From IMG/VR virus record IMGVR_UViG_3300023719_000001, positions 1 through 64,000 of that record: a DNA stretch of 64,000 nucleotides. One strand, 5' to 3'. Source of the DNA: a virus. The notes beneath the pieces are model-generated. The model made no database searches and had not been told where the DNA came from. It saw only the letters and a program-made list of their open reading frames with translations. Positions 21,497 to 46,462 of the stretch are shown here, piece by piece (position 1 is the stretch's first letter; each line of letters opens with the position of its first letter). The position numbers and the translations under genes are program-made.

Positions 21497-21523
21497 GTAT
21501 CCTGTGTTATATAGTTATAGCTA
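21497..21523 (-). promoter_or_regulatory. conserved phage motif copy M1 (GTATCCTGTGTTATATAG[ttatag]CTA)
   Basis: 14 nt upstream of the ligase start; matches the ~21-bp consensus with a 6-nt insertion. Confidence 0.4.
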
Positions 21524-21565: not shown

Positions 21566-21586
21566 GTATCCTGTATTGTATAGCTA
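21566..21586 (-). promoter_or_regulatory. conserved phage motif copy M2 (GTATCCTGTATTGTATAGCTA)
   Basis: sequence identity to the other copies. Confidence 0.4.
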
Positions 21587-21624: not shown

Positions 21625-21645
21625 TAGCTATATTATACAGGATAC
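21625..21645 (+). promoter_or_regulatory. conserved phage motif copy M3 in inverted orientation (TAGCTATATTATACAGGATAC)
   Basis: forms an inverted repeat with M2; 12 nt downstream of the helicase stop. Confidence 0.4.
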
Positions 21646-32333: not shown

Positions 32334-33857
32334 TTACTTTCTGGTGCAGACACCGACCTCTTTCCAGACATTCTGATTCAAATTCACTTCAAACATGATT
32401 TTCTTTTTCTCACCAAAGCGGTTCTTATCGATGTTTCCAACGTAATACCGCTTATCTGGATTTAGCCGATGGGCACAGTCACCGCCCCACTCAGGGTCAT
32501 GAGAGATGTATTGATACTTCGCGAACTTATCTTTTGGAATCTCCTTGAACAGAACCATCGTCCAAGCAACATGCTTAATCATTTTTGACTCAGCAATGTT
32601 GTTTGAATTCAGCTCATCAGGAAGATACTCATGAGCGTTTTCGGCCAACTGGATACTACCGTAGATAAAGATCTTCAGATTTTTCGCAATCTCTTCAAGT
32701 TCGGTGGCCGTGACCTTGAACGCCGCCCATTCACCAATAGATGCAATATCGTTCTTTAAAGTATCATAGAACACATACTTAACTCCCTGAGTGAGAGCTG
32801 CCTTCTGGATTTCAAATCGCAGAGACTTATCACTATAATCAGCAGAAACATCTTTTGCGATAATCAAGCCTTGTGATTCGTTCTCAATCCACTGGCAAAC
32901 ATCAAGCACATTGCGGTACTCTTCGCTTTCTTCGTAGACACGAGCGGTAAACTCATCAATGCTTTCTATGTATTCTCCATCTTCGTTTTGCTTTCGGAAG
33001 ATGAAGTTTCCATTTGCATCCCGGTACATTCCAAGGGTGATTTCTCGCTCATCCTTGTGGAAGCGATGACCATGCAACTCTTGAAATTCAGGATTATTGA
33101 TGGCGGTGACCAGTAAGCAATACCGGACTGACTCAAGATCCATCTCGTTTAGCAGCAGAAGAGCTTTTTGCTTTTGAACCAATGTGACGTAGGCAACAAT
33201 CGCCATCATGTATCTAGTCTTACCAGCATTAGATGGCATACCATTGAACATCACAGTGCCAAGCTTCAATCCTCGGAACAAATCATTCATGATAGGATAC
33301 TGGAACGGCAAACCCATATCGGGAACGCTCAGACGTTCATTGACCATTGGTAGCAGACCATTATTCAAAATCTCAGCATCATCGTTTGTGATAATAACCG
33401 TATTGATCTTGTCGGCCTTGCCACGAATCAATTTATAAATGTCCTGAGCACCAAACATTTCAAACTGTCGATGCTTCAAGATTCCTTCAATGTTAAATCC
33501 GTTTCTCTGATACTCACGAAGTAGCGAATATTTCTTCAAGATATTAAAGTATCCCTTGATGTCATCGTCATTCGCAAGGCTCATGTAGTATTCAATGGTT
33601 GACCAGCCCTTCAGCCGCTTGTATTGGGACAATCTGGACTCATCTTCAGCCATAAACGTTAAAACAGACGTTTTATTAAATTCTTGAGTCCGAGTTTCAT
33701 AAATAATTAACGCTGCATCGTAGAAAAATTTTGTTGCTTCATCGGCAAAATCGTACTTGCTCTTGACATAATGCCCATACTCGACCAAATAGTCAGGATG
33801 CTTGTAAATTGCGCCAACAAATAGAATTTCGTTCGGGATATTTGAAATGAGTTCCAC
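32334..33857 (-). CDS. DnaB-like replicative DNA helicase
   Basis: 507 aa; Walker A FNGMPSNAGKT, RecA-like C-terminal core. Confidence 0.8.
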   Translation of the reverse strand: MELISNIPNEILFVGAIYKHPDYLVEYGHYVKSKYDFADEATKFFYDAALIIYETRTQEFNKTSVLTFMAEDESRLSQYKRLKGWSTIEYYMSLANDDDIKGYFNILKKYSLLREYQRNGFNIEGILKHRQFEMFGAQDIYKLIRGKADKINTVIITNDDAEILNNGLLPMVNERLSVPDMGLPFQYPIMNDLFRGLKLGTVMFNGMPSNAGKTRYMMAIVAYVTLVQKQKALLLLNEMDLESVRYCLLVTAINNPEFQELHGHRFHKDEREITLGMYRDANGNFIFRKQNEDGEYIESIDEFTARVYEESEEYRNVLDVCQWIENESQGLIIAKDVSADYSDKSLRFEIQKAALTQGVKYVFYDTLKNDIASIGEWAAFKVTATELEEIAKNLKIFIYGSIQLAENAHEYLPDELNSNNIAESKMIKHVAWTMVLFKEIPKDKFAKYQYISHDPEWGGDCAHRLNPDKRYYVGNIDKNRFGEKKKIMFEVNLNQNVWKEVGVCTRK

Positions 33858-33874
33858 TCATCCACCTCCCTCTT

Positions 33875-34567
33875 TTATATCTCATCGAGAATTGCATTTA
33901 TATCAATTTCGTTCTCGTTTTTACTCTGTTTCGGTGCTGTTTTCATCCGTTTCAGTACCGTTTCAGTCAGATTTTCCTTCATTTTTTCTTCGCTTTCACT
34001 GCGAATCGAAGCTAGTCTTTCTTTTCGATCGAGATAACTAGGATATTGAGCCAATAAAACAGCCAAGTCGTAATTCCATCGCTGACTCATATCACAACCC
34101 TTTGCTTCTTTCTCGGCAACTATCTTATCTAGTCGGGGTTTCGCTAGAACCCACATATCGTAAAGTTCTAGCGGAGGAATAGAACCTCTGTATTTGTAAT
34201 AATTACCGGAAATTAACTGCGCAAGTTTCGAGTAGAAGCTACCAGGAACAACCGCCGGGGCGTATATATCTCGAATATGGTCGAAAAGAATCTTTTTCTC
34301 TTCCTGTTTGATATGTGCAAGCTCACGATTGTGGTCTTGTTCTCTCTTTTTGGAAAGAAGATCATCGACCTTTTTGTCCGTAGTGTCATTCACTTTGTCA
34401 AAAAATGCCCTTAGCAGGTCATCTGTCCAAGGGCGTTTTTGATTTTTCTTTTTTTCTACAAAACAATCCTTATGGTAAAAACCAGTCTTGTCGTAGAAAA
34501 ACGTGCTACGGTCTCGCTCGATGAAAATGTTCTTCCCGCAAATCTTGCATTTACGGGTTAGTTCCAT
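33875..34567 (-). CDS. hypothetical protein with N-terminal zinc ribbon (possible helicase-loader / replication accessory)
   Basis: 230 aa; CKICGKN...; stop/start overlap with the helicase operon. Confidence 0.4.
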   Translation of the reverse strand: MELTRKCKICGKNIFIERDRSTFFYDKTGFYHKDCFVEKKKNQKRPWTDDLLRAFFDKVNDTTDKKVDDLLSKKREQDHNRELAHIKQEEKKILFDHIRDIYAPAVVPGSFYSKLAQLISGNYYKYRGSIPPLELYDMWVLAKPRLDKIVAEKEAKGCDMSQRWNYDLAVLLAQYPSYLDRKERLASIRSESEEKMKENLTETVLKRMKTAPKQSKNENEIDINAILDEI

Positions 34568-35715
34568 TAAGCCAGTTCCTTCTCCATGACTGCGGCGACC
34601 TTCTTCAGTTCCTCAATATCAGTCATAGAACGGAATGCAGTAGACAGGCCAGCCGCCTTAACAGCCTTCTGTGCTGCGCTCTTCTTCACAGGAGAAGCAG
34701 AAGCAATCAGGTCATTCAGCTTTGCCTTAATGTCATCCAGAGAAGGCTCTTTATTGTCGGAACTCTTATCTGCCGGAGCATCATCCGGCTCATCGTTTTC
34801 GATACCAAGGTCACGCATACTCAGCTTAACCTCAGTCTTAACAGCATCGTTCAGGCCGTTCTTGATGACGTTCTCCCGATTCTTTGCGCTACTAGAGATA
34901 ATGTCCTGATACTCAAGCAGGGTCAAATCCTCAACGACCTCACCACCCTTGTGCATACCAGTACGATCCTTATCGAAGAAAGCAAGCTGCTGACCATCTT
35001 GGAAGTACAGACGGAACTCAGTATCAACGTTGTACTCCTGACCAGCGAAGCCATCAGGAATCTTGCGACCAGTGGGCTCACTTACGATAGAACCATTCAC
35101 AACCTTGGTATGCTTCTCATCCTTCTCACGGCAGATGACGATGTAGTTTACGCCAGATGCATTCAGATCCAAAATCAGAGACTGACCCTTGAAGTTCAGG
35201 GTATTGAAATCCTTGAGTTCCATGCCAGCACCCTCAATCTTAACTGCCTTTTCATCACCGGTCAGACCCTGAGATGCAGCCTTAACCTTGGCACGCTTCT
35301 GCGAGAAGGCGGTGAGGCCCTGGGTAGCTGTCATCTTAAGAATGGATGCGGAGTCAACAACCAGAGCGTCTGCACGGAACGGCTTGCCATCTGCGTCCAG
35401 ATAAACATCACCATTCTCATCCTCGATATCCTCATCGTTGGTAACCATCTTGATATAATCCTGAACTTCTGCCAGAGACTGGGTGTAAACAATCAGCAGA
35501 TTGTCAGGATTCACACCATTGGCTTCCAGTTCCTCAGTATAGTTATCAATAGAACCATTCTCGGTATCCAGATACAGAACACGGAACGGCTTGCCGTCTG
35601 CATTCTTCAAATAGCACAGCTGCATAGCAGTACGAGACTTACCAGTTCCCTGTTCACCATAAATCAGCATATGAAGCTTCTTACGAACAGCAGATGCCTT
35701 ACGAATCATAGCCAT
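34567..35715 (-). CDS. Sak4-like RecA-superfamily ATPase
   Basis: 382 aa; Walker A YGEQGTGKS near the N-terminus; adjacent to the putative SSB. Confidence 0.5.
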   Translation of the reverse strand: MAMIRKASAVRKKLHMLIYGEQGTGKSRTAMQLCYLKNADGKPFRVLYLDTENGSIDNYTEELEANGVNPDNLLIVYTQSLAEVQDYIKMVTNDEDIEDENGDVYLDADGKPFRADALVVDSASILKMTATQGLTAFSQKRAKVKAASQGLTGDEKAVKIEGAGMELKDFNTLNFKGQSLILDLNASGVNYIVICREKDEKHTKVVNGSIVSEPTGRKIPDGFAGQEYNVDTEFRLYFQDGQQLAFFDKDRTGMHKGGEVVEDLTLLEYQDIISSSAKNRENVIKNGLNDAVKTEVKLSMRDLGIENDEPDDAPADKSSDNKEPSLDDIKAKLNDLIASASPVKKSAAQKAVKAAGLSTAFRSMTDIEELKKVAAVMEKELA

Positions 35716-35743
35716 ATATGTAAATTCCTCTCTAAATCTTTTA

Positions 35744-36037
35744 TTAAACTTTCAAACACTCATACCACGGATCACCCGTTTCAACTGCATGAGCAACATA
35801 ATCCAACTGACGGGTGATGTTATCCACACTATCAACCAGAAGGTCTTTACACCCTACCGGAACAGCACCACCATTGCATTCCGCGTCGGCTTTAGCTTCT
35901 GCAATAATCTCAGGATGCGTAGTAAACACAATAGACATCATCGGAGAGTCTTCTTCAGGTTCCTTTTCAAGCGCTTCGATGTAGACAATGTAAAATTTCA
36001 TACCATTATAAGCGGTATACTCAAGAGTATTCTGCAT
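35744..36037 (-). CDS. hypothetical protein
   Basis: 97-aa ORF with AAGGAG RBS and upstream motif M4. Confidence 0.4.
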   Translation of the reverse strand: MQNTLEYTAYNGMKFYIVYIEALEKEPEEDSPMMSIVFTTHPEIIAEAKADAECNGGAVPVGCKDLLVDSVDNITRQLDYVAHAVETGDPWYECLKV

Positions 36038-36052
36038 AACTAAACTCCTTAT

Positions 36053-36073
36053 GTATCCTGTATTGCATAGCTA
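36053..36073 (-). promoter_or_regulatory. conserved phage motif copy M4 (GTATCCTGTATTGCATAGCTA)
   Basis: 15 nt upstream of the gene start at 36037. Confidence 0.4.
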
Positions 36074-36086
36074 ATGCTAAAATAAA

Positions 36087-37187
36087 TTAACCCCAGTCGT
36101 CCTCTTCCTCATTTGCAGGAGTTGCAGTAGACTTGTTGGAACCACCCCACCAAGAAGTGTCGTTCTCAGCAGCCTTGCCGTCGAAGTCCTTCTTAGCCTG
36201 AGTATTGGCAGCAATCTTTGCCCGTGCCTCGGAGATATTGTCCTCTGTGTAAGTAGGTTCCGCATCCTTGTCGCCAGGGTTCGGATCAAAGGAATCAGGA
36301 TTAACGCCCTCAATATACAGCTTACGAACTGCCGGAGTGCTCTGGCGCTTCATCTTATTAGGACCACCCCAGATATTCTCGGTCTCAACTTCCTCAACCT
36401 TCTGCTGATTGACAATGGGGCCAAAACACTCAAAGCTAGTATAAGACTTCAGACGCTTACGAATAGAATCAGCCAGAACCTTATTCTGAGTGTTTGCCTT
36501 ATAGTCAATGAAAAGCTCTGCGTCCTCAATGGTGTTGTAGTTCACAATTTTTGCATCAACAACTACTTCATCATCCTCATCACTCTTGCGGCAACCAGTG
36601 TAAACAATGGTCTGAGTAAACAGAGCCAGCTCCTCGAAACCCTCTGCATCGAAGTCGATTTCCTTAGAGCTCAGAGAAACCTGAGTAGGAACAAATCGAA
36701 TCTGGTGCTTATCGTTGTAAGTGCTGTACTCGATGTTACCACGGACATACACGTTGTCACCGTCATGCAGATTCTCGGAAATCTCCTTAGCTGCATCAAA
36801 ATCGGTCAGAGTCTTGTTATCATTGACGACCTTACCAGACTCATTCGTCTTCTTGGTAACACCGACCTTGACGCCAATCATATCATAGCCTTCCGGTGCA
36901 ACATAAGTCAGACGATCCTTCCAAGCGACTTCCTTCTTATCCTTCTCGATGCCCTTGTCCTTATCGGCACGGCGGAAGAAATAAACCTTATCACGAGGCA
37001 TACCAGCCAGATCAACATAGAAAGTGTTTTCATTGGAAGTCTGAATGCCAAAGCTCAGGACACGGCGCATAGCACCACTCTTAGTCTCCTTCTCGTTATA
37101 GAAGTTGCTACGCTGGGTGCCGGTGACCTTACCAGCCATCTCAAAAGAACCACGGGTCTGAGGAAGATTAAAAATTCTATCTGCCAT
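36087..37187 (-). CDS. putative ssDNA-binding protein
   Basis: 366 aa; acidic C-terminal tail ...ANEEEDDWG; partnered with the Sak4-like gene. Confidence 0.4.
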   Translation of the reverse strand: MADRIFNLPQTRGSFEMAGKVTGTQRSNFYNEKETKSGAMRRVLSFGIQTSNENTFYVDLAGMPRDKVYFFRRADKDKGIEKDKKEVAWKDRLTYVAPEGYDMIGVKVGVTKKTNESGKVVNDNKTLTDFDAAKEISENLHDGDNVYVRGNIEYSTYNDKHQIRFVPTQVSLSSKEIDFDAEGFEELALFTQTIVYTGCRKSDEDDEVVVDAKIVNYNTIEDAELFIDYKANTQNKVLADSIRKRLKSYTSFECFGPIVNQQKVEEVETENIWGGPNKMKRQSTPAVRKLYIEGVNPDSFDPNPGDKDAEPTYTEDNISEARAKIAANTQAKKDFDGKAAENDTSWWGGSNKSTATPANEEEDDWG

Positions 37188-37332
37188 ATCAAGTCTCCTT
37201 TATGTAATTTTGTTTCATTGATAATCACTTATGTTTCTTTTTATTGTCTTGAATCAATTCATGCACTATTCATTTTATGTATTATCCTCCGTCTGTCTTA
37301 TTGATGGCTTATATTTCATACGGCACTCGCCG

Positions 37333-37545
37333 TTAGAAATCGTCCTTTAAGGGATTATGTACAAACATTGCGCCGAGCACTACTGGGAGCCGTTCTGAAC
37401 ACTCAGGACACAAATCAAAACTCAAAAGCGAACCGTCAAGCTGGCTACCATAAGAGTATTGATGCTCAAAACTGATTCCCTGCTCGCTACCTATCGGCTT
37501 GATTTCACGACCACACCAGTTACATATTTTCTTACATGTGTTCAT
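37333..37545 (-). CDS. hypothetical zinc-finger protein
   Basis: 70 aa; CNWCG...CPEC. Confidence 0.35.
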   Translation of the reverse strand: MNTCKKICNWCGREIKPIGSEQGISFEHQYSYGSQLDGSLLSFDLCPECSERLPVVLGAMFVHNPLKDDF

Positions 37546-37562
37546 ACGGCATCACCCCATTT

Positions 37563-37841
37563 TTAATATTCTCTATCACGGAACATTTTAGATTGAGCAC
37601 GAGTCAGTCTGTTGTTCCGACCATGCTTAGGTCTGAATGCGGACTGCAGTTTGTTATTTGCATATTCGAGATCGCTCTCCAAAATCTTCGCAGCTTCTTC
37701 AATATAATCTCGAATTGCACAATACTGGTCACTGCTAATACAGTGTGTCTTTAGATAATCAAGCATATCGACTGCCTGATTCTTCAAAAGAAGCGTATCT
37801 TCAAGCTGAGTTTTACGCCGTTGGAAGAATTCCTCGTTCAT
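37563..37841 (-). CDS. hypothetical protein
   Basis: 92-aa ORF. Confidence 0.35.
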   Translation of the reverse strand: MNEEFFQRRKTQLEDTLLLKNQAVDMLDYLKTHCISSDQYCAIRDYIEEAAKILESDLEYANNKLQSAFRPKHGRNNRLTRAQSKMFRDREY

Positions 37842-38230
37842 TACTCATCGCCTCCTTCGATAGTAATAAGATAGGTCCTGTTTTCATATGCAGCCCAGTC
37901 AAGATTTTGTCCACACAGTTTGCAAACTTTCTCCTTCCAATTTACCGGATTGCCGCACGTTGGACATTGATAAAGCTTACAATGATTTGTCGGATAAGAA
38001 AGAATCGGCATTTCTGGTTTATTTTCTGCTTGGTTTACCAGAAGTTTGACAAACCTTATGTACTTGTCTGCATAACATAATATCATCTCGTAAGCATGAG
38101 TGGTATGTTCACGAGGGCGAAATTCACCATCTGTATGACCAAGACGAATCTGTTTTTCCATGATTTCTTTCGCTTCATCGAAAGTCATCTTTTCAATTTC
38201 ACGTTTTGTAGCGTGCAGCCAATCTTTCAT
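37841..38230 (-). CDS. hypothetical zinc-ribbon protein
   Basis: 129 aa; CPTCGN...CKLCGQ. Confidence 0.4.
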   Translation of the reverse strand: MKDWLHATKREIEKMTFDEAKEIMEKQIRLGHTDGEFRPREHTTHAYEMILCYADKYIRFVKLLVNQAENKPEMPILSYPTNHCKLYQCPTCGNPVNWKEKVCKLCGQNLDWAAYENRTYLITIEGGDE

Positions 38231-38505
38231 AATACACCACTTTCAGCAAACGCATAGTTATGCTTTGCATTCTTATCTGTCCATACGCCCCAATCCATCT
38301 TGTGATGACAATCAGAACATTCACACTCGAACTTTTCCAGTTTCGTCACACAAAACGGACAGAGATACGTGTTCTTCTCCTTCTGAAAGATAGGACTTGC
38401 TGGAATGCTCAAAGAACCTGGGTCGATGGTTACATTGATAGGAATTTTGCTGTTCATCGTGTTACCTCTTATTTGAATTAGCCTTTTATGAGATTTTCTT
38501 ATCAA
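38227..38505 (-). CDS. hypothetical zinc-ribbon protein
   Basis: 92 aa; CPFC...CECSDC. Confidence 0.35.
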   Translation of the reverse strand: MIRKSHKRLIQIRGNTMNSKIPINVTIDPGSLSIPASPIFQKEKNTYLCPFCVTKLEKFECECSDCHHKMDWGVWTDKNAKHNYAFAESGVL

Positions 38506-38911
38506 GCTTCCGCAGTTCTAACTTACTTGGAAGAAAATTTCTACAGAAGTATGCACTTCCAAACGACACTCCCTCGACAGGACTGTCTGTGTGTTCAGGG
38601 TCCATAAATCCGATTCGAGAATCAAAACACAACATCTGTACATCATTTTTAAAAATGTCAAATCGTGTTTTCCCCTGAATACTATTTGCAGGAAGCAGTA
38701 GAGCAAACGGTTTTTCAAGTTCATATGCTCTACGCAGCACATCATCCTTCTTACTAAAAGGAGGATTCGAAATCATAACATCCCAACGTTCTGGTTCATA
38801 TGTAAAGAAATCTTGCCCATTATCGATATGGCTACACTCTACTTTGTACCCAGCATTTCTAAACACCTGCACAAAAGCAGACCATTCTTTATCAAACGGA
38901 CACCAAATCAC
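38486..38911 (-). CDS. N6-adenine DNA methyltransferase-like protein (Dam-like; NPPF motif), possibly 5'-truncated or split
   Basis: 141 aa from a GTG start; catalytic motif IV DVMISNPPFS; no AdoMet motif I within the ORF; a short upstream ORF in another frame ends in GTGA overlapping the start. Confidence 0.5.
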   Translation of the reverse strand: MIWCPFDKEWSAFVQVFRNAGYKVECSHIDNGQDFFTYEPERWDVMISNPPFSKKDDVLRRAYELEKPFALLLPANSIQGKTRFDIFKNDVQMLCFDSRIGFMDPEHTDSPVEGVSFGSAYFCRNFLPSKLELRKLDKKIS

Positions 38912-38924
38912 TGCTTCACTCGAC

Positions 38925-38930
38925 GGGGGG
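38925..38930. repeat. G6 homopolymer tract immediately upstream of the Dam-like gene
   Basis: cgacGGGGGGcaaa; a 1-nt length change would fuse the upstream reading frame to the MTase ORF. Confidence 0.5.
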
Positions 38931-39028
38931 CAAATTCAAGCAATGGAATAACCGCGTAAACCGGTGTGTATCGCTCATCGCCTGCCGCAGATCGGTCAGC
39001 TGTTAAATATCCTTTGTTTTCTGGCAAA

Positions 39029-40505
39029 TTATCCTCCTTGCTTTTCTGGAAAATGCTCCTTAGTTACTGCAACGCAGAACGGTTCGATTTCAGATCCCCA
39101 GATAGCAGTACCATCACCATACGTACTTTCAAAGACAAGCGGAAAGCCACCAATCCCATCGAATAGACTGCCAAGCGTAGGATTTTCACCAATATACGGC
39201 TTCATCTTCTGGCAAATCCAGTACCACTGCGGTAACGCAATCGAATTGCCGAGAGCCTTATAACGAGCTGCGTCAGAAGTCTTGTGCTTCTTCCCATTCT
39301 CATCGATCCAGTCACCGATATCAGTCCATCCGTCAGGGAAACCCTGTAACCGTTCATCCTCCAAAGGAGTCAAGCGGCGAACAATCCATCGTAGATTCTT
39401 AGTTTCCTTCTCTGCAATCAGGTCAGTAGCGTCCTTATAATCACGAGATTTCATCGTGCTGGCGTGTTCGCTTTCCTTGTACTCACCAATGCGCTGCATT
39501 GCAAAGGCTTTCTTTTCAACGACCAGCGGCATATTATTACCGCCCGTTCCCCACTGAGCAGTACAAGTCGGACTTGTATCACCCTGCTGAGTGTATCGAG
39601 CGTCCTGACTGTGACTCTCAAATACCACCGGTGAAATCTTTTGTTTTGAATTATGTAATGATGGATTTTCTACCAAGCAAATTAGCGTCTGGTCTTGCAA
39701 CGTAGAAATCGTTGCGCTCAATTCAGTTTGAACCAGAGCGCCTTTACCTCCGCCTTCACATCCAGAACGGATTTTTAGAGTGTAGGCTGCAGGTTCTGTG
39801 CATCGAGTCGAAGTCTCTCGATGGTCTGACTCCAATACTCGTCCAATTCCTTCTCTTCCAGACCTTCTTGTTCCTTCACTTTCTGCACCACCTGTGACAG
39901 AGTTCCTGGATTCCACCATTCGATCATATCCAGCAACGCTTGCTTCAGGAGTTCGGGCAAAGGTTTTCCACGCCGGGATGCTCTCACAAGAATCCCCTGA
40001 CATGCTCGTGCGCTCAAATAGAATTTCTGAGGCACGTTGTCCTCCAAAATCCATGACAAGCGCGATTCTCTGGCGGCGCTGGGCGACTCCCCAGTATTTA
40101 GCGTCGAACAATCTCCATGCAAGAGACCATCCATTACCGGAAATCGCTCCAGATTTTTCCCACTTTCCGTTCTTTCCTGAAGGTCGAGGAATTGAAACGT
40201 CTGGCTCGACAATGCGTGCAAATCTTTCCAACACACATCTGAAGTCTTCACCTTTGCTTGAGCTGAAAGCTCCTCTGACATTTTCCCAGATTGCGAATTT
40301 TGGATATTCTCCATTAGTGGCCTCCCTCATTTCTGTAATCACACGAATCATTTCAAGGAACAATCCAGAGCGTTCACCAGCCAAACCTTCACGTTTACCG
40401 GCCTGACTCAAATCTTGGCATGGACTGCCTCCTGTGATACAGGAAACCGGTTCAATCTGCCATCCATGAAGTTGTGTAATATCTCCGTAATGCTTCAGTT
40501 TTCAT
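39029..40505 (-). CDS. DNA (cytosine-5)-methyltransferase, circularly permuted; leader ATG at 40505 is out of frame by +1 and an in-frame TGA lies between them
   Basis: hand translation gives HYGDIT (III), GGSPCQDLSQAGKREG (IV), FAIWENV (VI), QRRQRIALV (VIII), TRD SPTCTAQWGTGGNN, RRLTPLEDERLQGFPD (IX), KALGNSIALPQ (X), then C-terminal FDGIGGF (I) + SEIEPFCVAVTKEHFPE; region ~50% GC. Confidence 0.6.
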
Positions 40506-40516
40506 CCCTCCTTTTC

Positions 40517-40537
40517 GTATCCTGTATTATATAGCTA
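40517..40537 (-). promoter_or_regulatory. conserved phage motif copy M5 (GTATCCTGTATTATATAGCTA)
   Basis: immediately upstream of the GGAGGG RBS and ATG of the C5-MTase leader. Confidence 0.4.
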
Positions 40538-40641
40538 AAACTCAGAAAATGAGCGAAAAAATAATAGACGTATCAACGTCATATTATTTCGTCGCCTATA
40601 AAACAAAAGATTTAGCAGATTTTATGTATGCCCTATCGGGC

Positions 40642-40718
40642 TGGTGGGACAGGAGAGATTTGAACTCCCGACCAAGCGGTTATGAGCCGCCAGCTCTGAC
40701 CAACTGAGCTACTATCCC
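40642..40718 (-). tRNA. tRNA-Met (anticodon CAT; elongator Met or Ile2-type), CCA encoded
   Basis: cloverleaf folded by hand: acceptor GGGATAG/CTGTCCC, D-arm GCTC..GAGC, anticodon loop CTCATAA, T-loop TTCAAAT. Confidence 0.8.
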
Positions 40719-40908
40719 ATAAAAACCAGTTAAACAGCTGCAACTATTCAACTGGGCACCTTCCTTATAAAACACTATTGCATCTATATCATATAGACGA
40801 GGAAGGAATAACAGCGATGCACATTTCCTATATCTCGCCCCTTTCGGGGTAGTATTTCGCACAGGCGCGGCCGGGACTGACCGCTTAAAATCCCTACCCA
40901 TACGAAAT

Positions 40909-40983
40909 TGGAGCAGCGAAAGGTAGTCGAAACCTCATCCTCAGCTTGGAAGGCTGATATACTAGCCGTTGTACGACCGCTGC
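40909..40983 (-). tRNA. tRNA-Gly (anticodon TCC), CCA encoded
   Basis: acceptor GCAGCGG/TCGCTGC, anticodon stem-loop TCAGC-CTTCCAA-GCTGA, T-loop TTCGACT. Confidence 0.7.
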
Positions 40984-41089
40984 ATGAGAACCCAGCTTAC
41001 AAAGCACTACTGCACCATCACTGGCGAGCCGGGAATAATAGTGGCAATCAAAGGAGATCAACAAACGGTACGCAACCATTCTATGACCG

Positions 41090-41171
41090 TGGTGCGGATA
41101 GTGGGCATCGAACCCACACGCTAAAGCACCAGAGCCTAAATCTGGCGTGTCTGCCATTCCACCATATCCGC
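41090..41171 (-). tRNA. tRNA-Leu (anticodon TAG), type II, CCA encoded
   Basis: acceptor GCGGATA/TATCCGC, anticodon loop TTTAGGC, long variable arm, T-arm GTGGG-TTCGATG-CCCAC. Confidence 0.8.
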
Positions 41172-41176
41172 ATAAA

Positions 41177-41247
41177 TTGCGCCAACAGGGGTCGAACCTG
41201 TGATGGAGGAGTCAAAGTCCTCTGCCTTACCGCTTGGCGATGGCGCA
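41177..41247 (-). tRNA. tRNA-Gln (anticodon TTG), no encoded CCA
   Basis: U1-A72 acceptor TGCGCCA/TGGCGCA, anticodon loop CTTTGAC, T-arm ACAGG-TTCGACC-CCTGT. Confidence 0.75.
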
Positions 41248-41314
41248 TCATGTACCCAGCTTACTGGAGAATAATCCTACTGCCTTACTATTAAGGAGCT
41301 GGGAATAATAGGAA

Positions 41315-41390
41315 TTGGTCCGAGTGACAGGTCATGATCCTGCGGCCTCATGCTCCCAAAGCACGCGCTCTTCCAACTGAGCTACACCCG
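41315..41390 (-). tRNA. tRNA-Pro (anticodon TGG), CCA encoded; atypical T-loop
   Basis: acceptor CCGGGTG/CACTCGG, D-arm GCTC-AGTTGGAA-GAGC, anticodon loop TTTGGGA; T-loop ATCATGA is unusual. Confidence 0.6.
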
Positions 41391-41397
41391 GATATCA

Positions 41398-41480
41398 GTG
41401 CTACCAGCGGGGGTCGAACCCGCACGTCTTTCGACATCGGTTTTTAAGACCGAAGCGTACTGCCTATTTCGCCATGGTAG
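41398..41480 (-). tRNA. tRNA-Leu (anticodon TAA), type II, no encoded CCA
   Basis: acceptor GCTACCA/TGGTAGC, anticodon stem-loop TCGGT-CTTAAAA-ACCGA, long variable arm, T-arm GCGGG-TTCGACC-CCCGC. Confidence 0.8.
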
Positions 41481-41562
41481 CATATAAAAGCTGTCTGTCC
41501 AGCAGTCAATCGTCTTTCCGATTTGCCAGTTGAGTTTGCCATCCGCTCATCTACACATGAGC

Positions 41563-41646
41563 TGGTAGGGATAGAGGGATTCGGACCCTCACGTCTCTCG
41601 ACACTGGGACTTGAAACCAGCGTGGCTGCCATTTCACCATATCCCC
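41563..41646 (-). tRNA. tRNA-Leu (anticodon CAA), type II, CCA encoded
   Basis: aligns with the Leu(TAG) copy; anticodon loop TTCAAGT, one 31-39 mismatch, G1-U72 wobble. Confidence 0.65.
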
Positions 41647-41712
41647 ATATTGCCGGTCTTTCCCGGCCGTCAGCCCCGCTCAGGGCATTTTCGGAGGAAG
41701 AAAATGTCTTAA

Positions 41713-42381
41713 TTACTCATTACCAAGCGTATCAGCGATATCCTTGAAGTCATTCCACTTGATTTTGACAATTACTCGATTACCTCTGCGGTCTTTCAAC
41801 TCAACCTTTGGACGACCAACCAGACCTTCCATATAAATGTCATCAATCGAAACCGTAGACTTCGGATGTTGACACACAAACTTGATACCGTCTCGAATCG
41901 TCCCTGTAAACAAAATAGGAACTACTTGGATACCAAACATCTGAGCAGTCTTTTCAACCCACTCTCTACTCTGGTAGTTATCACCAATCAGGACATCGAA
42001 CAAGATGAACCACTCATCAGGTCAGTATCCATGACCACATCCTTGAATTTTGCCACCATAACCCTCTCCAAAGAGGATTACTTCTTTATCACCGTAAGTC
42101 TGTTCAAACAATTCCTCTGCTTCAGAAGTACCGAAAATTTCATTTAGTGCATTCAGCAGATTCTTTGGAAGTTCTGCACGTTCAGTTCGTCCGGCAAAGC
42201 TGACTTTATGACCGTCCCAGCAAACACGCACATTCGTGCCATCCACTTTCTCAGTAAATTCCCACTCATTATTTTGTAGGAACTCAATGGTTTCATTACG
42301 AAAATCACCGATAATCAGCTTTTTAGTGCCTTCGATATCACGATTAAACACCGTTTCGATTTTTTCGTAGGTTTTCATCAA
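41713..42381 (-). CDS. Rnl2-like RNA ligase interrupted by a single in-frame TGA (at 42022-42024)
   Basis: motif I EKVDGTN, motif III ILFGEGYGG, then ...GHGY-TGA-PDEWFILFDVLIGD (motif IIIa), motif IV EGLVGRP, motif V IVKIKWNDF; both halves verified by hand to be in the same frame. Confidence 0.6.
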
Positions 42382-42448
42382 AAATCACCTCAAAATTCTA
42401 ACGTATTTTCGTTAATTATTTTAACGAAAATCACGATAAAATGTCTAT

Positions 42449-42832
42449 TTAATTCAACTCTTCCAGCTTCTTCATTAGCTGGTCAACGTCCATATCTTCA
42501 AGTTCCTTGTCCTTCTTCTTTGCAACGATCTTCATAATCTTATCACGTTGCGCCTTCTTCTCTGCGGCGTCCACACGTGCCTCGTACTCGGCCAGCCTGA
42601 CAGAAACGATGTATTTGACTAGCTCAATCTTATTTTCCAGTTCTGTATTTTCGGCGCTCTTAACAGCCAGCAAAGAATCTTCATCTGCGGTTTTCTTTTG
42701 ACGGTTCAGAGTCTTAAAAATCGCATCCAGTGCCTCGACGCTCAGAGCCCACAGATCTTCAACAGTCATAACACCCTTATAGTTGAAGCGATAGCGATTA
42801 CGGGTTGCAATTTCAAACAGATTCTTTTCCAT
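42449..42832 (-). CDS. hypothetical coiled-coil protein
   Basis: 127-aa ORF, Lys/Glu-rich C-terminus. Confidence 0.4.
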   Translation of the reverse strand: MEKNLFEIATRNRYRFNYKGVMTVEDLWALSVEALDAIFKTLNRQKKTADEDSLLAVKSAENTELENKIELVKYIVSVRLAEYEARVDAAEKKAQRDKIMKIVAKKKDKELEDMDVDQLMKKLEELN

Positions 42833-42846
42833 AATTATTTCTCCTT

Positions 42847-44919
42847 TCAGATAACCACTTTCAAAATTCGCTCAGTAGCTCCCTGCACCTTAACAATAAA
42901 GGAATCCTGCTTCGTTTCAGAGAATCCAACGCCGGACAGCTGATCATTTACCGACTGAACTGCCATCTGAGAACCCAGCGCCTCAAATACTCGCTTATGC
43001 TGTAGCAATTCCGCCTTCAGGAATTCGTTGTAAAATCCGTTCGGCTTTTCGGGGTTGACGCAATCCTTGAGCATGAAGAAGTAGTGACGATTGCCATTGC
43101 CGGTCTGTTCGTCCCAGTAGTTCGGAGAGTACATCGCCACAGACACAGGTACGAACTGGTTGGAACTCACACCCCAAATTTCACGGGTGCTGGTAGAACT
43201 GGGAAGCAGTTCCTTGATAGAGAATTTGCCATCCTTCAGAGTGACCTTTGCCACAGCTACATTCTGACCACCATGCAGCGGCTTATCGTAGTTAAACGAG
43301 TAGATGTTGCCATCGAATTCGATTTCAGCACGGAAACCGGTTTTGCCGCCGCGACTAGCGAAGCAGTTTACATAGAAGCTGTACTCGCCTTCCTTCATCT
43401 TTTTGATGTCAGGCCAGGTGATATTCTCGACCGCGGCCTTATAGCGAATGGGACGCATAATATCTACGTCCAGGCGGCCATCAGTACGAGGGTGCCACTT
43501 GCTGCCGAAATAGATGTGATTCTTATCGGGTTCAATGCAATGAGCATCCTCATCATTTTCATCCCACTCGCCCGGCTTATCGTTCCACTGAATAGAGAAA
43601 CGCAGCACGCCATCGACTTTGCCGCCAGCATTCTTGACGTTCTCTCGAATCTGGCTGTCAGTCATGTTACCTGTATACGCCCAACTGAATCCATTTGCCC
43701 ACTTGAACATAGACGGCGCACTCTTATCCTGCGGAGCAACCAGAGACACCATGTTCTTCGAGAACCGATTTTCCATAAACAGTTCCAGACCTGCTGCAGT
43801 AGGCAGAACTTCTTTGACGAACTTTTCAATACCAATTTCTTCTGCGCGGCCGAACTTCTTGGGGTCGGTACCCAGAGACTTTGCCATTGCCTCGAACGGA
43901 TTCGCAGCGCCAAGCACACGAGGAGCGGCATCGCGGTTGCAGAACAGAATGTTGTTGGCAGTAATATCATCCAGAGTGGCGAACCGACGACCCAGACTGT
44001 TCATATAGCCCAGCTCAGTGACGGTTTTCTGTGCATCCTCCAGCATCTTCTTAGTGAAAATTGCCTTTGGACGCTTATAGTTTGCAGGAGCAACAACCTT
44101 CTCAAAGGCAGTGACGGCAGAATCTACATCCATACCTTCGCTCAAATTGATAAGAAGGGTGCCGATAGCGGTGTTACGAATGCGAAGCTGCGCCGCCGTA
44201 GCATACGTAGGGGCAAGCCATACAAAGGCAACCTTTTCGTCAACAGACAGTTTGTCATAACCAATCTTATCGTGCTTAAACTCCTTTACAGACCGCTCAA
44301 ACTCCTTGCCGCGATACAGACTATTCTGTGCAATCAGCTCCAGAACAGTATCAACCGCATCCATAGTCAGTTCTTCCAGAGAACGCTTGAATACATTCGC
44401 CGAATCGCGCCACTGAGCCATCTTAGCAGCTACGTCATCTCCGCTGGTAATGAAACGCTGCGGAATATTAACTGCGAAATGATCCCAAGTATGTACGTCC
44501 TTATGGTTTTCGTCGTACTCGTAGTTCATCACGGTGCCGAACATATCTCCAGAACCGATCATATTGCGACTGACAAAGTACGGATTCACAATGGTACGGC
44601 TCTTCACATAGGCAGCCAGCGCATCAACAACCGGCTGATACTTGGCAGACTTTGCATCGAAATCCCAGATGGAAATCAAATTATAATTCTTATCAAACGC
44701 CACCAGTTTACCGATATTTTTCACAAAACGGCGGCAGCAGGAACAGTCATACTCACGACGCTTTCGGAACAGCTCATTCGTGCCGGCCGGGAAGCTGTCG
44801 AGATACAGATTGTACAGTTCGTCTTCGTCTGCATCGGTGATAAACAGAGGGTTTTCGCTCTTCACCATCTCGTCAAAATGCTCCTGCAGCAGAGTACGGA
44901 ATTCTTTAAAATCAGACAT
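42847..44919 (-). CDS. large hypothetical protein (690 aa; Cys cluster DCSCCRRF), GC-richer than its surroundings
   Basis: long ORF with GGAG RBS and motif M6 upstream; natural amino-acid composition, unlike the 621-aa antisense ORF. Confidence 0.55.
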   Translation of the reverse strand: MSDFKEFRTLLQEHFDEMVKSENPLFITDADEDELYNLYLDSFPAGTNELFRKRREYDCSCCRRFVKNIGKLVAFDKNYNLISIWDFDAKSAKYQPVVDALAAYVKSRTIVNPYFVSRNMIGSGDMFGTVMNYEYDENHKDVHTWDHFAVNIPQRFITSGDDVAAKMAQWRDSANVFKRSLEELTMDAVDTVLELIAQNSLYRGKEFERSVKEFKHDKIGYDKLSVDEKVAFVWLAPTYATAAQLRIRNTAIGTLLINLSEGMDVDSAVTAFEKVVAPANYKRPKAIFTKKMLEDAQKTVTELGYMNSLGRRFATLDDITANNILFCNRDAAPRVLGAANPFEAMAKSLGTDPKKFGRAEEIGIEKFVKEVLPTAAGLELFMENRFSKNMVSLVAPQDKSAPSMFKWANGFSWAYTGNMTDSQIRENVKNAGGKVDGVLRFSIQWNDKPGEWDENDEDAHCIEPDKNHIYFGSKWHPRTDGRLDVDIMRPIRYKAAVENITWPDIKKMKEGEYSFYVNCFASRGGKTGFRAEIEFDGNIYSFNYDKPLHGGQNVAVAKVTLKDGKFSIKELLPSSTSTREIWGVSSNQFVPVSVAMYSPNYWDEQTGNGNRHYFFMLKDCVNPEKPNGFYNEFLKAELLQHKRVFEALGSQMAVQSVNDQLSGVGFSETKQDSFIVKVQGATERILKVVI

Positions 44920-44949
44920 TGTTATTCTCCATTCAAATACTATTTTTAA

Positions 44950-44970
44950 GTATCCTGTATTATATATCTA
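44950..44970 (-). promoter_or_regulatory. conserved phage motif copy M6 (GTATCCTGTATTATATATCTA)
   Basis: ~30 nt upstream of the 690-aa gene start. Confidence 0.4.
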
Positions 44971-45005
44971 ACGTATTAAAATCAAGGAGCCGAAGCCCCC
45001 TGTTT

Positions 45006-45932
45006 TTAATTTTTATGGAAATATTCGACCCAACCTTTGTATCCTTGTCTGAAGCTAATGTAGGCAACCTTGCTACACTTTCTTCCGATAATGTCTGCAA
45101 GAGGGTCTTTACCATTTCCGAAACTAAGTTCTGCAAGATTAAATTCTGGATTATTCTTACAGTAGTCGTAGACCTTCACGTATTCGCCGTTTCTGGTTAG
45201 ATGCCTTCGATCTAAAGCCTTTGAGTGATATCTTTTTTCGAGGATGTTATTCAACCGCATAAAATAGGTATGAATTGTATGCACAGACATCTTTGGGTCA
45301 CTGTCTGCACCGATACTATCCTCGGTTTTACGAATGATGTAATCACCATTCATGACATAGAATGCCCTATACCCTCCCTTATTGGGAGCGTCATACTGTT
45401 TCATTTCATAACACTGCTTAATAATATCCATCAACTTTGCATCAACACCTGTCTTATCAAGAACAGTACAAGATTCAAAATCGACATCGTTAATCGTCAG
45501 GTTAGAAACTTCTTCAGAAGTAAGGCCAATCCAGTACAGTGCAGCAATCACGTTCATACGAATCTGATATGGCTCTTCATACTTATTTAAGAAGTCAACA
45601 AACTCATCAACTGATGCAAAGTATTTATCCGCATACATATTGTCTGCGCTTACATCGCTCTCTGAAAAGTCAGCCAGATCATACATGCTTGTTTTGTTTT
45701 CGCTTTTGATGTAGCCTGTGATTATTGACTTCACATTTTTAAACGAACGACTCGAGTTCACCCAATTATATTTGGCAAACATCTTTACGAAATCATCTTT
45801 TGTGAAGTCAAACAACTCATACCCACGCTCAGCCTCGTAACCCAGAACATGGTTAAGCGTCGATACAACAAACTCACCGCTTCTATCAGAATACTTTTCA
45901 GCAAAAGCTTTGATCTTTTCTTCAGTAAGCAT
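45006..45932 (-). CDS. putative site-specific (tyrosine) recombinase-like protein, weak
   Basis: 308 aa; C-terminal HTIHTYFMRL...RR...VAYISFRQGY weakly resembles box II of the integrase family; hairpin plus T-run follows the stop. Confidence 0.3.
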   Translation of the reverse strand: MLTEEKIKAFAEKYSDRSGEFVVSTLNHVLGYEAERGYELFDFTKDDFVKMFAKYNWVNSSRSFKNVKSIITGYIKSENKTSMYDLADFSESDVSADNMYADKYFASVDEFVDFLNKYEEPYQIRMNVIAALYWIGLTSEEVSNLTINDVDFESCTVLDKTGVDAKLMDIIKQCYEMKQYDAPNKGGYRAFYVMNGDYIIRKTEDSIGADSDPKMSVHTIHTYFMRLNNILEKRYHSKALDRRHLTRNGEYVKVYDYCKNNPEFNLAELSFGNGKDPLADIIGRKCSKVAYISFRQGYKGWVEYFHKN

Positions 45933-45985
45933 AGTGGCACACTCCTTCTTATTATATGTAGTGTACCATTAACCATTATAAAAAA

Positions 45986-46405
45986 TCAAGCAAATGCGGC
46001 AAAATTTTGAAATTCCATGGTATGTTGTACGCCGCTCAGGAATGCTGCGAGTAAAAACGGTTCATCCTTGCATCTTGCCATTGCGATCATATTCATATGA
46101 CGCTCAGACAAGACACCAAGCTTTTTGATGAACTGTCCTTTGTTAAGTGTATCAGTCTCTTCACAAAGAACGATACTATCAACCTCTAGGAAATCGCAGT
46201 CTTCTTTCGAGAGTAGAACATGAACCGGAGAACGCTTGTATATTCTGGAAGACAACGGATTCCCTTTGATTGTGGGACTGAAGAAGTTGCGCTTGTTGTT
46301 GCTTGTCACAACGAACGGTCGAATACCGCGCTGCTGATGACCTGTTGCATTGGACAAATCGACCAACCAAACCTCTCCGACCTTTGGGTCAATATTGTTG
46401 TCCAT
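45986..46405 (-). CDS. MazF/PemK-family endoribonuclease toxin
   Basis: 139 aa; VGEVWLVDLSNATGHQQRGIRPFVVTS and DTLNKGQFIKKLGVLSERHMNMIAMA match the MazF fold signature; no MazE-like ORF directly upstream. Confidence 0.7.
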   Translation of the reverse strand: MDNNIDPKVGEVWLVDLSNATGHQQRGIRPFVVTSNNKRNFFSPTIKGNPLSSRIYKRSPVHVLLSKEDCDFLEVDSIVLCEETDTLNKGQFIKKLGVLSERHMNMIAMARCKDEPFLLAAFLSGVQHTMEFQNFAAFA

Positions 46406-46441: not shown

Positions 46442-46462
46442 TAGCTATATTATACAGGATAC
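46442..46462 (+). promoter_or_regulatory. conserved phage motif copy M7, inverted orientation (TAGCTATATTATACAGGATAC)
   Basis: lies between the MazF start and the stop of the upstream gene. Confidence 0.4.

Follow-up and report, generated by a model that had tools for sequence, protein, structure and literature searches.

We describe a cytosine-5 (C5) DNA methyltransferase (MTase) that has been circularly permuted in nature, with the cut between motifs II and III. It is encoded on the minus strand of a viral sequence, the first 64,000 nucleotides (nt) of IMG/VR virus record IMGVR_UViG_3300023719_000001; this whole stretch is referred to as the window. We favour, at a probability of roughly 0.8, a reading in which the gene encodes a natural permuted orphan C5 MTase, is translated from a CUG codon without any frameshift, and contains a nested open reading frame (ORF) that is maintained in the +1 frame. 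The topology has not previously been reported in nature.

The motifs of the MTase frame follow the order III, IV, VI, VIII, target recognition domain (TRD), IX, X, and only then I and II. Three-frame translation of 40558-39029 shows that the minus-strand frame with its first base at 40558 is open between a TGA (40504-40502) and a TAA (39031-39029). The motifs required of a C5 MTase are all present: FDGIGG (I), SEIE (II), SPCQ (IV), ENV (VI), QRRQR (VIII), and GNS (X), with a long variable region between QRRQR and motif IX. The Pfam profile PF00145 matches the protein at 118.7 bits (curated cut-off 22), with residues 4-95 falling on profile positions 46-131 and the stretch preceding the C-terminal tail on positions 255-322. 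The 53-residue tail on its own matches positions 4-45 (E-value 6e-4). When the tail is put first by hand, PF00145 aligns unbroken, with residues 5-147 on positions 4-131; the permutation is therefore visible by profile and not only by eye. The tail is in frame, and the stretch from GNS to LGSLFDGIGG contains neither a stop nor a start signal. PF00145 coordinates place the new N-terminus between motifs II and III and motif I after motif X, an arrangement termed Type B. The initial annotation had read this order by hand translation, without motif II, and proposed a natural circular permutation; both stand, and the profile alignment proposed there as a check for a conventional I-to-X order returned the permuted one. 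The PADLOC orphan methyltransferase profile also matches (E-value 3e-83), and PHROG 16427, labeled only “DNA methyltransferase”, covers the junction.

Relatives of the enzyme are collinear with it. A protein search found more than 100 near-identical proteins; they come from independently assembled gut metagenomes, with contigs reaching 430 kb, and nearly all are called as 460 amino acids from the same TTG. Scanning IMG/VR with the MTase protein yielded 144 relatives; the 80 loci kept (65-98% identity) match the query from residue 2 or 3 to residues 487-491, the exception being a contig-end fragment (L063). A scan with the family alignment gave at least 587 stretches, and here the 80 kept loci (38-98% identity) match from residue 1-3, most of them to residues 483-489 and a few ending at a contig end or an internal break. 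Over both scans, the listed loci cover the protein from its start into the tail, apart from L063 and partial matches of the L042 type. We also searched 1.8 billion cluster representatives exhaustively and considered the best 150 clusters at 50% identity. The majority of these have MKHLGDIT at residue 1, and every such cluster inspected ends in ...LGSLFDGIGGFPL..WASEIEEFPIAVTK..F (LGSLFDGIGGF..WASEIE.F.IAVTK). Canonical-order relatives in the same list read M..LGSLFDGIGG..WASEIEP.PI.VTK.HFPNMKHLGDIT. Cultured carriers of the permuted form are the Faecalibacterium phages FP_Toutatis and Lelie (54% identity, collinear over 1-483). A search for near-identical DNA among GenBank phages returned matches only to tRNA fragments.

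Two kinds of addition to the enzyme were seen among relatives. In some close relatives, namely loci L038, L039, and L040 (match length 1986 nt) and protein P0108, motif IX is interrupted in frame by about 175 residues that include an HNH_3 domain (PF13392; ..RLQGFPE / ... / GWTDIGEW..); the insertion resembles one of the homing-endonuclease type. Protein P0113 is an MTase fused to a dUTPase.

The catalytic and cofactor motifs do not vary among 45 homologues: residues E72, N73, V74, Q140, R141, R142, and R144 are invariant, as are the tail residues S444, L445, F446, G448, F452, and E470. An AlphaFold model built with 45 permuted homologues is confident at residues 1-164 and 370-489, with a predicted local distance difference test score (pLDDT) of 85-97 in the core. 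The tail (pLDDT 93-96) is modeled as strand 442-445, helix 451-460, strand 465-469, and helix 473-482, which is the first half of a Rossmann-like fold. The best Foldseek matches of the model are M.HhaI, M.MpeI, M.HaeIII, and DNMT1, with the confident core at probability 1.00. With every catalytic residue in place and a fold that closes in the model, activity of the enzyme is probable.

The gene carries a second coding pattern in its +1 frame. Across about 47 close relatives, the excess of polymorphism at third positions follows the MTase frame from 40515 to 40110, switches to the +1 frame from about 40065 to 39840, and is back in the MTase frame at about 39800. A 282-nt segment holds 68 polymorphic sites, which in the +1 frame give 41 synonymous and 28 nonsynonymous changes (22% synonymous expected). 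The same segment read in the MTase frame gives 18 synonymous and 51 nonsynonymous changes (25% synonymous expected), that is, no constraint, with no stop in 30 haplotypes. Purifying selection in the +1 frame, over about 150 nt past motif VIII, thus goes beyond anything that the MTase frame would impose. An earlier comparison of identities had picked its segments by their +1-frame pattern, and we replaced it with one anchored only on motif VIII in the MTase frame (77 loci, about 2,100 pairs). Upstream of motif VIII, amino-acid identity is 0.55 in the MTase frame vs 0.36 in the +1 frame; 60-180 nt past motif VIII it is 0.26 vs 0.50. Unique segments upstream are free of stops in the +1 frame in 65/70 cases, and in the +2 frame in 8/70. 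A GC3 (G+C content at third codon positions) frame plot of a high-GC relative leans towards the +1 frame but decides nothing, since the position concerned doubles as MTase codon position 1.

Judged from these patterns, the +1-frame ORF is conserved and under selection, and it may well be translated into a functional protein. It has a helical, basic core of about 50 residues, LS.ILE...P..YYLSA.AC.GIL.RA.RRGK.LP..L..AL, which is better conserved than the MTase frame on the same DNA. AlphaFold predicts residues 97-179 of the nested product as helical (pLDDT 83-92) and residues 1-79 as disordered, and it predicts the MTase linker under the core as disordered (pLDDT 29-43). The basic, helical C-terminal half of the nested ORF would thus overlie a disordered MTase linker. 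The nested product has no significant sequence or profile match in Pfam, NCBIfam, PHROG, PADLOC, or PDB, and no Foldseek match in PDB or BFVD. The initial annotation had seen MTase-like text in this second frame: the ORF at 40314-39775 exists, encodes 179 amino acids, and is meaningful, but its product resembles no MTase in Pfam, PHROG, NCBIfam, or PDB. One candidate explanation, that the +1 frame is the true MTase frame, was rejected, as canonical and permuted relatives all read ADFGG..EILFER in the main frame. A GTG at VPQ, preceded by GGAGGA, was considered as an internal start, but other clades do not conserve it.

The nested frame extends far beyond gut phages. The 80 phage loci and many Clostridial genomes share the position of its ATG. 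The core peptide lies in the +1 frame within a C5 MTase gene in nearly all of 64 species genomes, loci with a broken MTase frame being allowed. These genomes include Eikenella, Edaphobacter, Silvibacterium, Sphingomonadales, and Planctomycetes, in which the MTases are 28-34% identical to that of the window and the core is 57-67% identical. The core is also present in 132 GenBank phage records (Vibrio, Mycobacterium, Escherichia, Streptococcus, and others); among 30 listed records, most of the annotated ones have it under a DNA-cytosine methyltransferase and the rest under a hypothetical protein. Small “hypothetical proteins” that correspond to the nested peptide form at least 3,271 clusters. 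In one conjugative element (L147, 2501-3004, with TrbL and VirB8), the gene caller took a 167-residue nested ORF and only the C-terminal half of the MTase, whose frame is actually continuous from 2221 to about 3780; here the nested frame corrupts the automatic annotation of these MTase genes. The frame thus accounts for thousands of “hypothetical proteins” and for split methyltransferase calls. If it is translated, few overlapping genes of bacteria and phages would match it in breadth of conservation.

In relatives of FP_Toutatis, homopolymers flank the segment that holds both frames. The FP_Toutatis gene is annotated as two coding sequences, the first of which begins with motifs III-VI, passes in frame into the +1 domain, and ends there. 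The poly-G tract at the entry of the two-frame segment varies in this subclade when lengths are compared between assemblies: G7 gives the full MTase ORF, G8 a truncated product, and G9 a fusion. A second tract of G6-G7 lies at the exit. The tracts were located at 1521 in L228 (FP_Toutatis, MG711466) and in L168, L188, L195, L197, L199, L204, L205, L206, and L216. In the full-length hybrids P0249 and P0312, the +1 domain replaces motifs VII-VIII. Poly-G at both borders would allow a switch between an active MTase and a form that carries the alternative domain. The window has no poly-G tracts, and therefore a +1 product there would need its own start.

These observations could mean that a large C5 MTase subfamily carries an ancient second coding frame at +1, spanning motifs VI-VIII and the linker past motif VIII. 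The subfamily would take in gut phages, Clostridial prophages, and phages or elements of Vibrio, Mycobacterium, Escherichia, Eikenella, and Acidobacteria. The frame would be read as a separate 179-residue protein in the window and by poly-G switching in FP_Toutatis-like phages, and the nested protein might act as a partner, regulator, or alternative module of the MTase. We lean towards this wider proposal by a little over even odds.

A different explanation is that the +1 frame reflects internal frameshifts of the MTase itself, whose true protein would follow frame 2, then frame 0, then frame 2 again, or that the +1 peptide is an alternative module reached only by ribosomal or homopolymer slippage and never from a start of its own. 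It draws on the onset of +1-frame selection only at about 40065, on the in-frame hybrids (P0249, P0312, FP_Toutatis AUV56727, L199, L204, and L216), and on the poly-G tracts that flank the two-frame segment in the FP_Toutatis subclade (G7, G8, or G9 at entry; G6-7 at exit). However, a hybrid would be without motif VIII, and the poly-G tracts are missing from the window, where the +1 ORF has a strong Shine-Dalgarno (SD) sequence and an ATG at the same position across Clostridial relatives. The MTase frame is also open in 80/80 unique segments, picked by their +1-frame pattern, and matches ADFGG..EILFER. We regard this explanation as unlikely. Further internal frameshifts or decay had been suggested for the window's gene, but its MTase frame is continuous and matches canonical relatives through QRRxRIALVADFGGxxAxEILFER.

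The most likely translation start of the MTase is a CUG codon at 40498, as aligned start codons suggest; it is the simplest route and needs no frameshift. At the position of the window's CTG, relatives sampled by MTase similarity carry ATG (54/80), GTG (15/80), or CTG (8/80). The clade of the window has the consensus GGAGG-N-ATG-NNNN-CTG-AAG-CAT, in which NNNN is AAAA, AACT, AAAC, GAAA, GGAA, or AAGA. The frame relation between this ATG and the CTG is constant, NNNN has no length variants, and the ATG is never in the MTase frame. The CTG is invariant in all loci of the clade, exactly where the relatives start. Polymorphism indicates that codons 1-30 are under purifying selection in the MTase frame: all five differences from L002 (5/5) are synonymous, and N-terminal polymorphic sites fall on MTase-frame third positions in 19/30 and 18/27 cases. 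The N-terminus of the MTase is therefore translated. CUG initiation in E. coli reaches 1-2% of that from AUG (bioRxiv 10.1101/063800). Weak initiation from CUG would keep expression of the enzyme deliberately low, and the ATG 1 nt past the SD sequence may be a decoy or the start of a short upstream ORF. If only ATG, GTG, and TTG count as starts, the first in frame is the TTG at 40411, past the catalytic Cys, as the initial annotation had noted. Because the start is CTG, hundreds of copies of this MTase are annotated 30-50 residues short and without the catalytic Cys.

It is also conceivable that the N-terminus is not made, and that the product begins at TTG 40411 or a later Met without motifs III and IV, as a dead DNA-binding protein or a gene in early decay. 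Standard gene callers indeed give 460 or 440 amino acids. Two sister clades also end their first ORF right past the catalytic Cys. They read GGTGGTTCACCTTGT, then TAGC or TAGA, then CAAGA, a 4-nt insertion directly past the catalytic Cys codon (TGT TAG C CAA or TGT TAG A CAA) that ends a 27-codon ORF with a good GTG start. The insertion lies around 2578 in L041, L045-L048, L050-L052, L054-L060, L064-L066, L068, L070, and L071, and around 1578 in L181, L210, L214, and L223. Beyond the insertion the gene runs on in the +1 frame; this part is intact in 18/21 loci and is under selection. The insertion either serves recoding or shows that loss of the catalytic N-terminus is tolerated. For the clade of the window, loss of the N-terminus is quite improbable: codons 1-30 show the third-position bias, HYGDIT and GGSPCQ are conserved within the CTG clade, and the CTG itself does not vary at the position where relatives start. 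These phages seem to share a tendency to restrict, by several routes, how much of the catalytic form is made.

On the reading of the initial annotation, the gene begins at ATG 40505 and a +1 shift is required in the A4 run. Such a shift could come from a sequencing error or from programmed slippage at AAA-A assisted by the neighbouring SD. It is correct that this ATG, which reads MKTEALRRYYTTSWMAD*, is out of the MTase frame. Removing one A yields MKLKHYGDIT, the GGAGGG lies 3 nt before the AAA codon in a geometry like that generally known for prfB, and the ATG is conserved in the clade. A read error is contradicted by 33 independent viral contigs that carry the identical 23-mer AAAAGGAGGAATGAAAACTGAAG and by the shared TTG from which the more than 100 near-identical proteins are called. 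Against programmed slippage, the A4 run is not conserved: clade variants replace AAAA without changing the frame relation, no A3 or A5 variant exists that would mark a phase-variable homopolymer, and the next 0-frame codon is ACT, TCT, or CCT, with no pausing stop. Relatives also have ATG or GTG at the window's CTG. A 1-nt spacing between SD and ATG is too short to initiate, while genes behind the same promoter-like motif, TAGCTATATAATACAGGA, use 4-7 nt. A shift at A4 is thus very unlikely, and the required frameshift claimed earlier finds no support. Recoding of an upstream TGA or TAG was also considered and rejected: there is no start upstream in the MTase frame, and in the sister clades the frame after the TAG is wrong.

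Several points weigh against the combination of a permuted orphan enzyme, a CUG start, and a maintained nested ORF. Bacteria rarely initiate at CUG, and the out-of-frame ATG has been kept in the clade of the window. Selection may favour the loss or throttling of the catalytic N-terminus in these phages. The nested ORF shows no constraint and is disordered over its first 80 residues, and its real start and product are uncertain. The TRD is modeled poorly (pLDDT <50).

A tandem duplication, with later truncation of both ends, may have produced the permutation. The MTase would then begin at what is an internal Met in canonical relatives (...HFPN-M-KHLGDIT); the permuted proteins start at this Met and end just before it, as such a route predicts. 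The route passes through a two-gene stage (Jeltsch 1999, as cited in PMC5944983), but a tail that is merely the remnant of a second, truncated MTase gene or an assembly artefact can be set aside almost entirely, since nothing separates GNS from LGSLFDGIGG, all relatives, even at 38% identity, keep the two parts fused in frame with motif I and II residues invariant, the MTase has no other motif I, and the model places the tail with high confidence.

Type B permutants were previously known from the laboratory. Albert et al. (PLoS One 2018, PMC5944983) engineered circular permutants of M.MpeI and M.SssI, among which Type B was the most active topology and comparable to wild type. They reported Type B to be absent from natural enzymes, suggesting weaker S-adenosylmethionine (AdoMet) binding as the reason; the 27 natural permuted C5 enzymes found in their REBASE search were all cut in the variable region (Type H). 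A 2025 topology classification likewise lists only canonical and M2.Eco31I-type topologies for 5-methylcytosine (m5C) enzymes (bioRxiv 10.1101/2023.12.13.571470), and our literature search found no description of a natural Type B C5 MTase. As in the engineered Type B proteins, the window's enzyme has its new N-terminus between motifs II and III and its old termini joined; unlike those CG-specific constructs, it is natural and belongs to a different subfamily. Type B is the standard architecture of a large and diverse phage MTase clade that includes cultured Faecalibacterium phages, which answers the remark in PMC5944983. The idea of weaker AdoMet binding can now be tested on natural enzymes, and motif-order rules for finding and classifying methyltransferases need a new class.

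Other rearranged C5 enzymes differ from that of the window. Type H enzymes (zeta class, topology F: M.BssHII, M.Alw26I, M2.Eco31I, M.Esp3I, and M2.BsaI) are also permuted m5C enzymes for which an origin by duplication and truncation has been proposed. Unlike them, the window's enzyme is cut inside the catalytic domain, between motifs II and III, and its motif VIII, TRD, IX, and X are contiguous and in normal order. Plant enzymes of the DRM2 type share a rearranged C5 motif order, but DRM motifs VI-X precede I-V, whereas in the window only motifs I and II have moved, and III and IV precede VI. Canonical-order orphan MTases of phages and mobile elements from the same subfamily (such as P0362, P0376, and P0382; PADLOC oMTase PDLC03715) have the same motif texts, at 35-50% identity. 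These share the ADFGG..EILFER linker and the nested +1 ORF, and they differ in having motifs I and II at the N-terminus.

The nested frame resembles other same-strand overlapping genes, such as dcm-vsr in E. coli and overprinted genes of small phages, in that two selected frames share one DNA. The dcm-vsr overlap spans only a few codons, at gene ends. In contrast, the ORF described here, of 130-180 codons, is fully nested, and its core is conserved across phyla, more so than the host frame. No paper on a nested gene in a cytosine methyltransferase was among the 15 top-ranked matches of a full-text literature search.

Table 1. Features of the MTase gene and its surroundings in the window (all on the minus strand unless left empty).
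Feature	Position	Strand	Evidence or remark
C5-cytosine DNA methyltransferase, circularly permuted; 489 codons plus stop from the probable CUG	39029..40498	-	PF00145, E-value 4.8e-34
Promoter-like motif TAGCTATATAATACAGGA, contains TATAAT; 21 nt upstream of CTG	40520..40537	-	repeated in the window
Copies of TAGCTATATAATACAGGA	21500-21517, 21569-21586, 21625-21642, 36056-36073, 40520-40537, 44953-44970, 46442-46459		
Shine-Dalgarno sequence AAGGAGGG	40506..40513	-	read from sequence; 1 nt to ATG 40505, 8 nt to CTG 40498
Out-of-frame ATG and 17-codon ORF MKTEALRRYYTTSWMAD*; probably decoy or short upstream ORF	40452..40505	-	translation
CTG, putative non-AUG start codon	40496..40498	-	aligned start codons of relatives; SD spacing 8 nt
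Motif III HYGDIT	40492-40475	-	translation
Motif IV GGSPCQ, catalytic Cys27	40432-40415	-	translation
Motif III to motif IV segment	40415..40492	-	third-position polymorphism excess in MTase frame
Motif VI ENV	40285-40277	-	translation
Motif VIII QRRQR	40081-40067	-	translation
Motif VI to motif VIII segment	40067..40285	-	invariant residues among 45 sequences
Nested +1-frame ORF, 179 amino acids; own AGGGAGG, 6-nt spacer, ATG	39775..40314	-	full-length homologues called small hypothetical proteins
Conserved core of nested ORF SRLSWILEDNVPQKFYLSARACQGILVRASRRGKPLPELLKQALLDMIEWW; same DNA is unconstrained MTase linker	39913..40065	-	frame-specific selection
Motif IX RRLTPLEDERLQGFP	39379-39335	-	translation
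Motif X GNS	39250-39242	-	translation
Motif IX to motif X segment	39242..39379	-	PF00145 positions 255-322
Junction of old C-terminus and old N-terminus QKMKPYIGENPT	39176..39211	-	in frame in all relatives; sequence and length vary
Relocated motifs I and II, AdoMet-binding strand-helix-strand-helix, C-terminal end VTKEHFPEKQGG	39032..39175	-	PF00145 positions 4-45
Motif I LGSLFDGIGGF	39175-39143	-	translation
Motif II WGSEIE	39100-39083	-	translation
N6-adenine methyltransferase (NPPF), split by C6 tract 38930-38925	38486..39027	-	phrog_799, E-value 1e-27

The gene belongs to a gut phage of roughly 130 kb, where it is an orphan MTase in the replication module, downstream of a tRNA array. Besides seven tRNAs, the replication region encodes a DnaB-like helicase, a Sak4-like protein, and integrase-like and MazF-like products. 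Of the ten larger ORFs scanned nearby (32337-46405), none matched a restriction endonuclease family; their matches were helicase, Sak4-like, DNA-binding, RNA ligase, integrase-like, and MazF-like. G+C content is 47.6% in the MTase gene, 41.4% in the whole window, and 39-44% in the flanks, so that the contrast of about 50% with about 38% given by the initial annotation was overstated. The tRNA array (40642-41646, minus strand) lies directly upstream of the MTase promoter and comprises Met-CAT, Gly-TCC, Leu-TAG, Gln-TTG, Pro-TGG, Leu-TAA, and Leu-CAA.

The 18-nt motif upstream of the MTase is probably a phage-specific promoter with a very short leader. It occurs in seven copies in the window with at most three mismatches, vs 0.06 expected by chance. 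At four copies, those of the MTase and three other genes, an SD sequence and a gene start lie within 8-30 nt. The copies at 21500, 36056, and 44953 are followed by an SD sequence and then an ATG at +16, +18, and +33, respectively, and the two with a clear AAGGAG-type SD have SD-to-ATG spacings of 4 and 7 nt.

The adjacent N6-adenine MTase gene is present in only about 9/80 related loci. The length of its poly-C tract varies among relatives, which have C6, C7 (restoring one ORF, ..LLEFAPPSSEAVIWCPFD..), or C11. The tract is either a phase-variable switch or homopolymer assembly noise.

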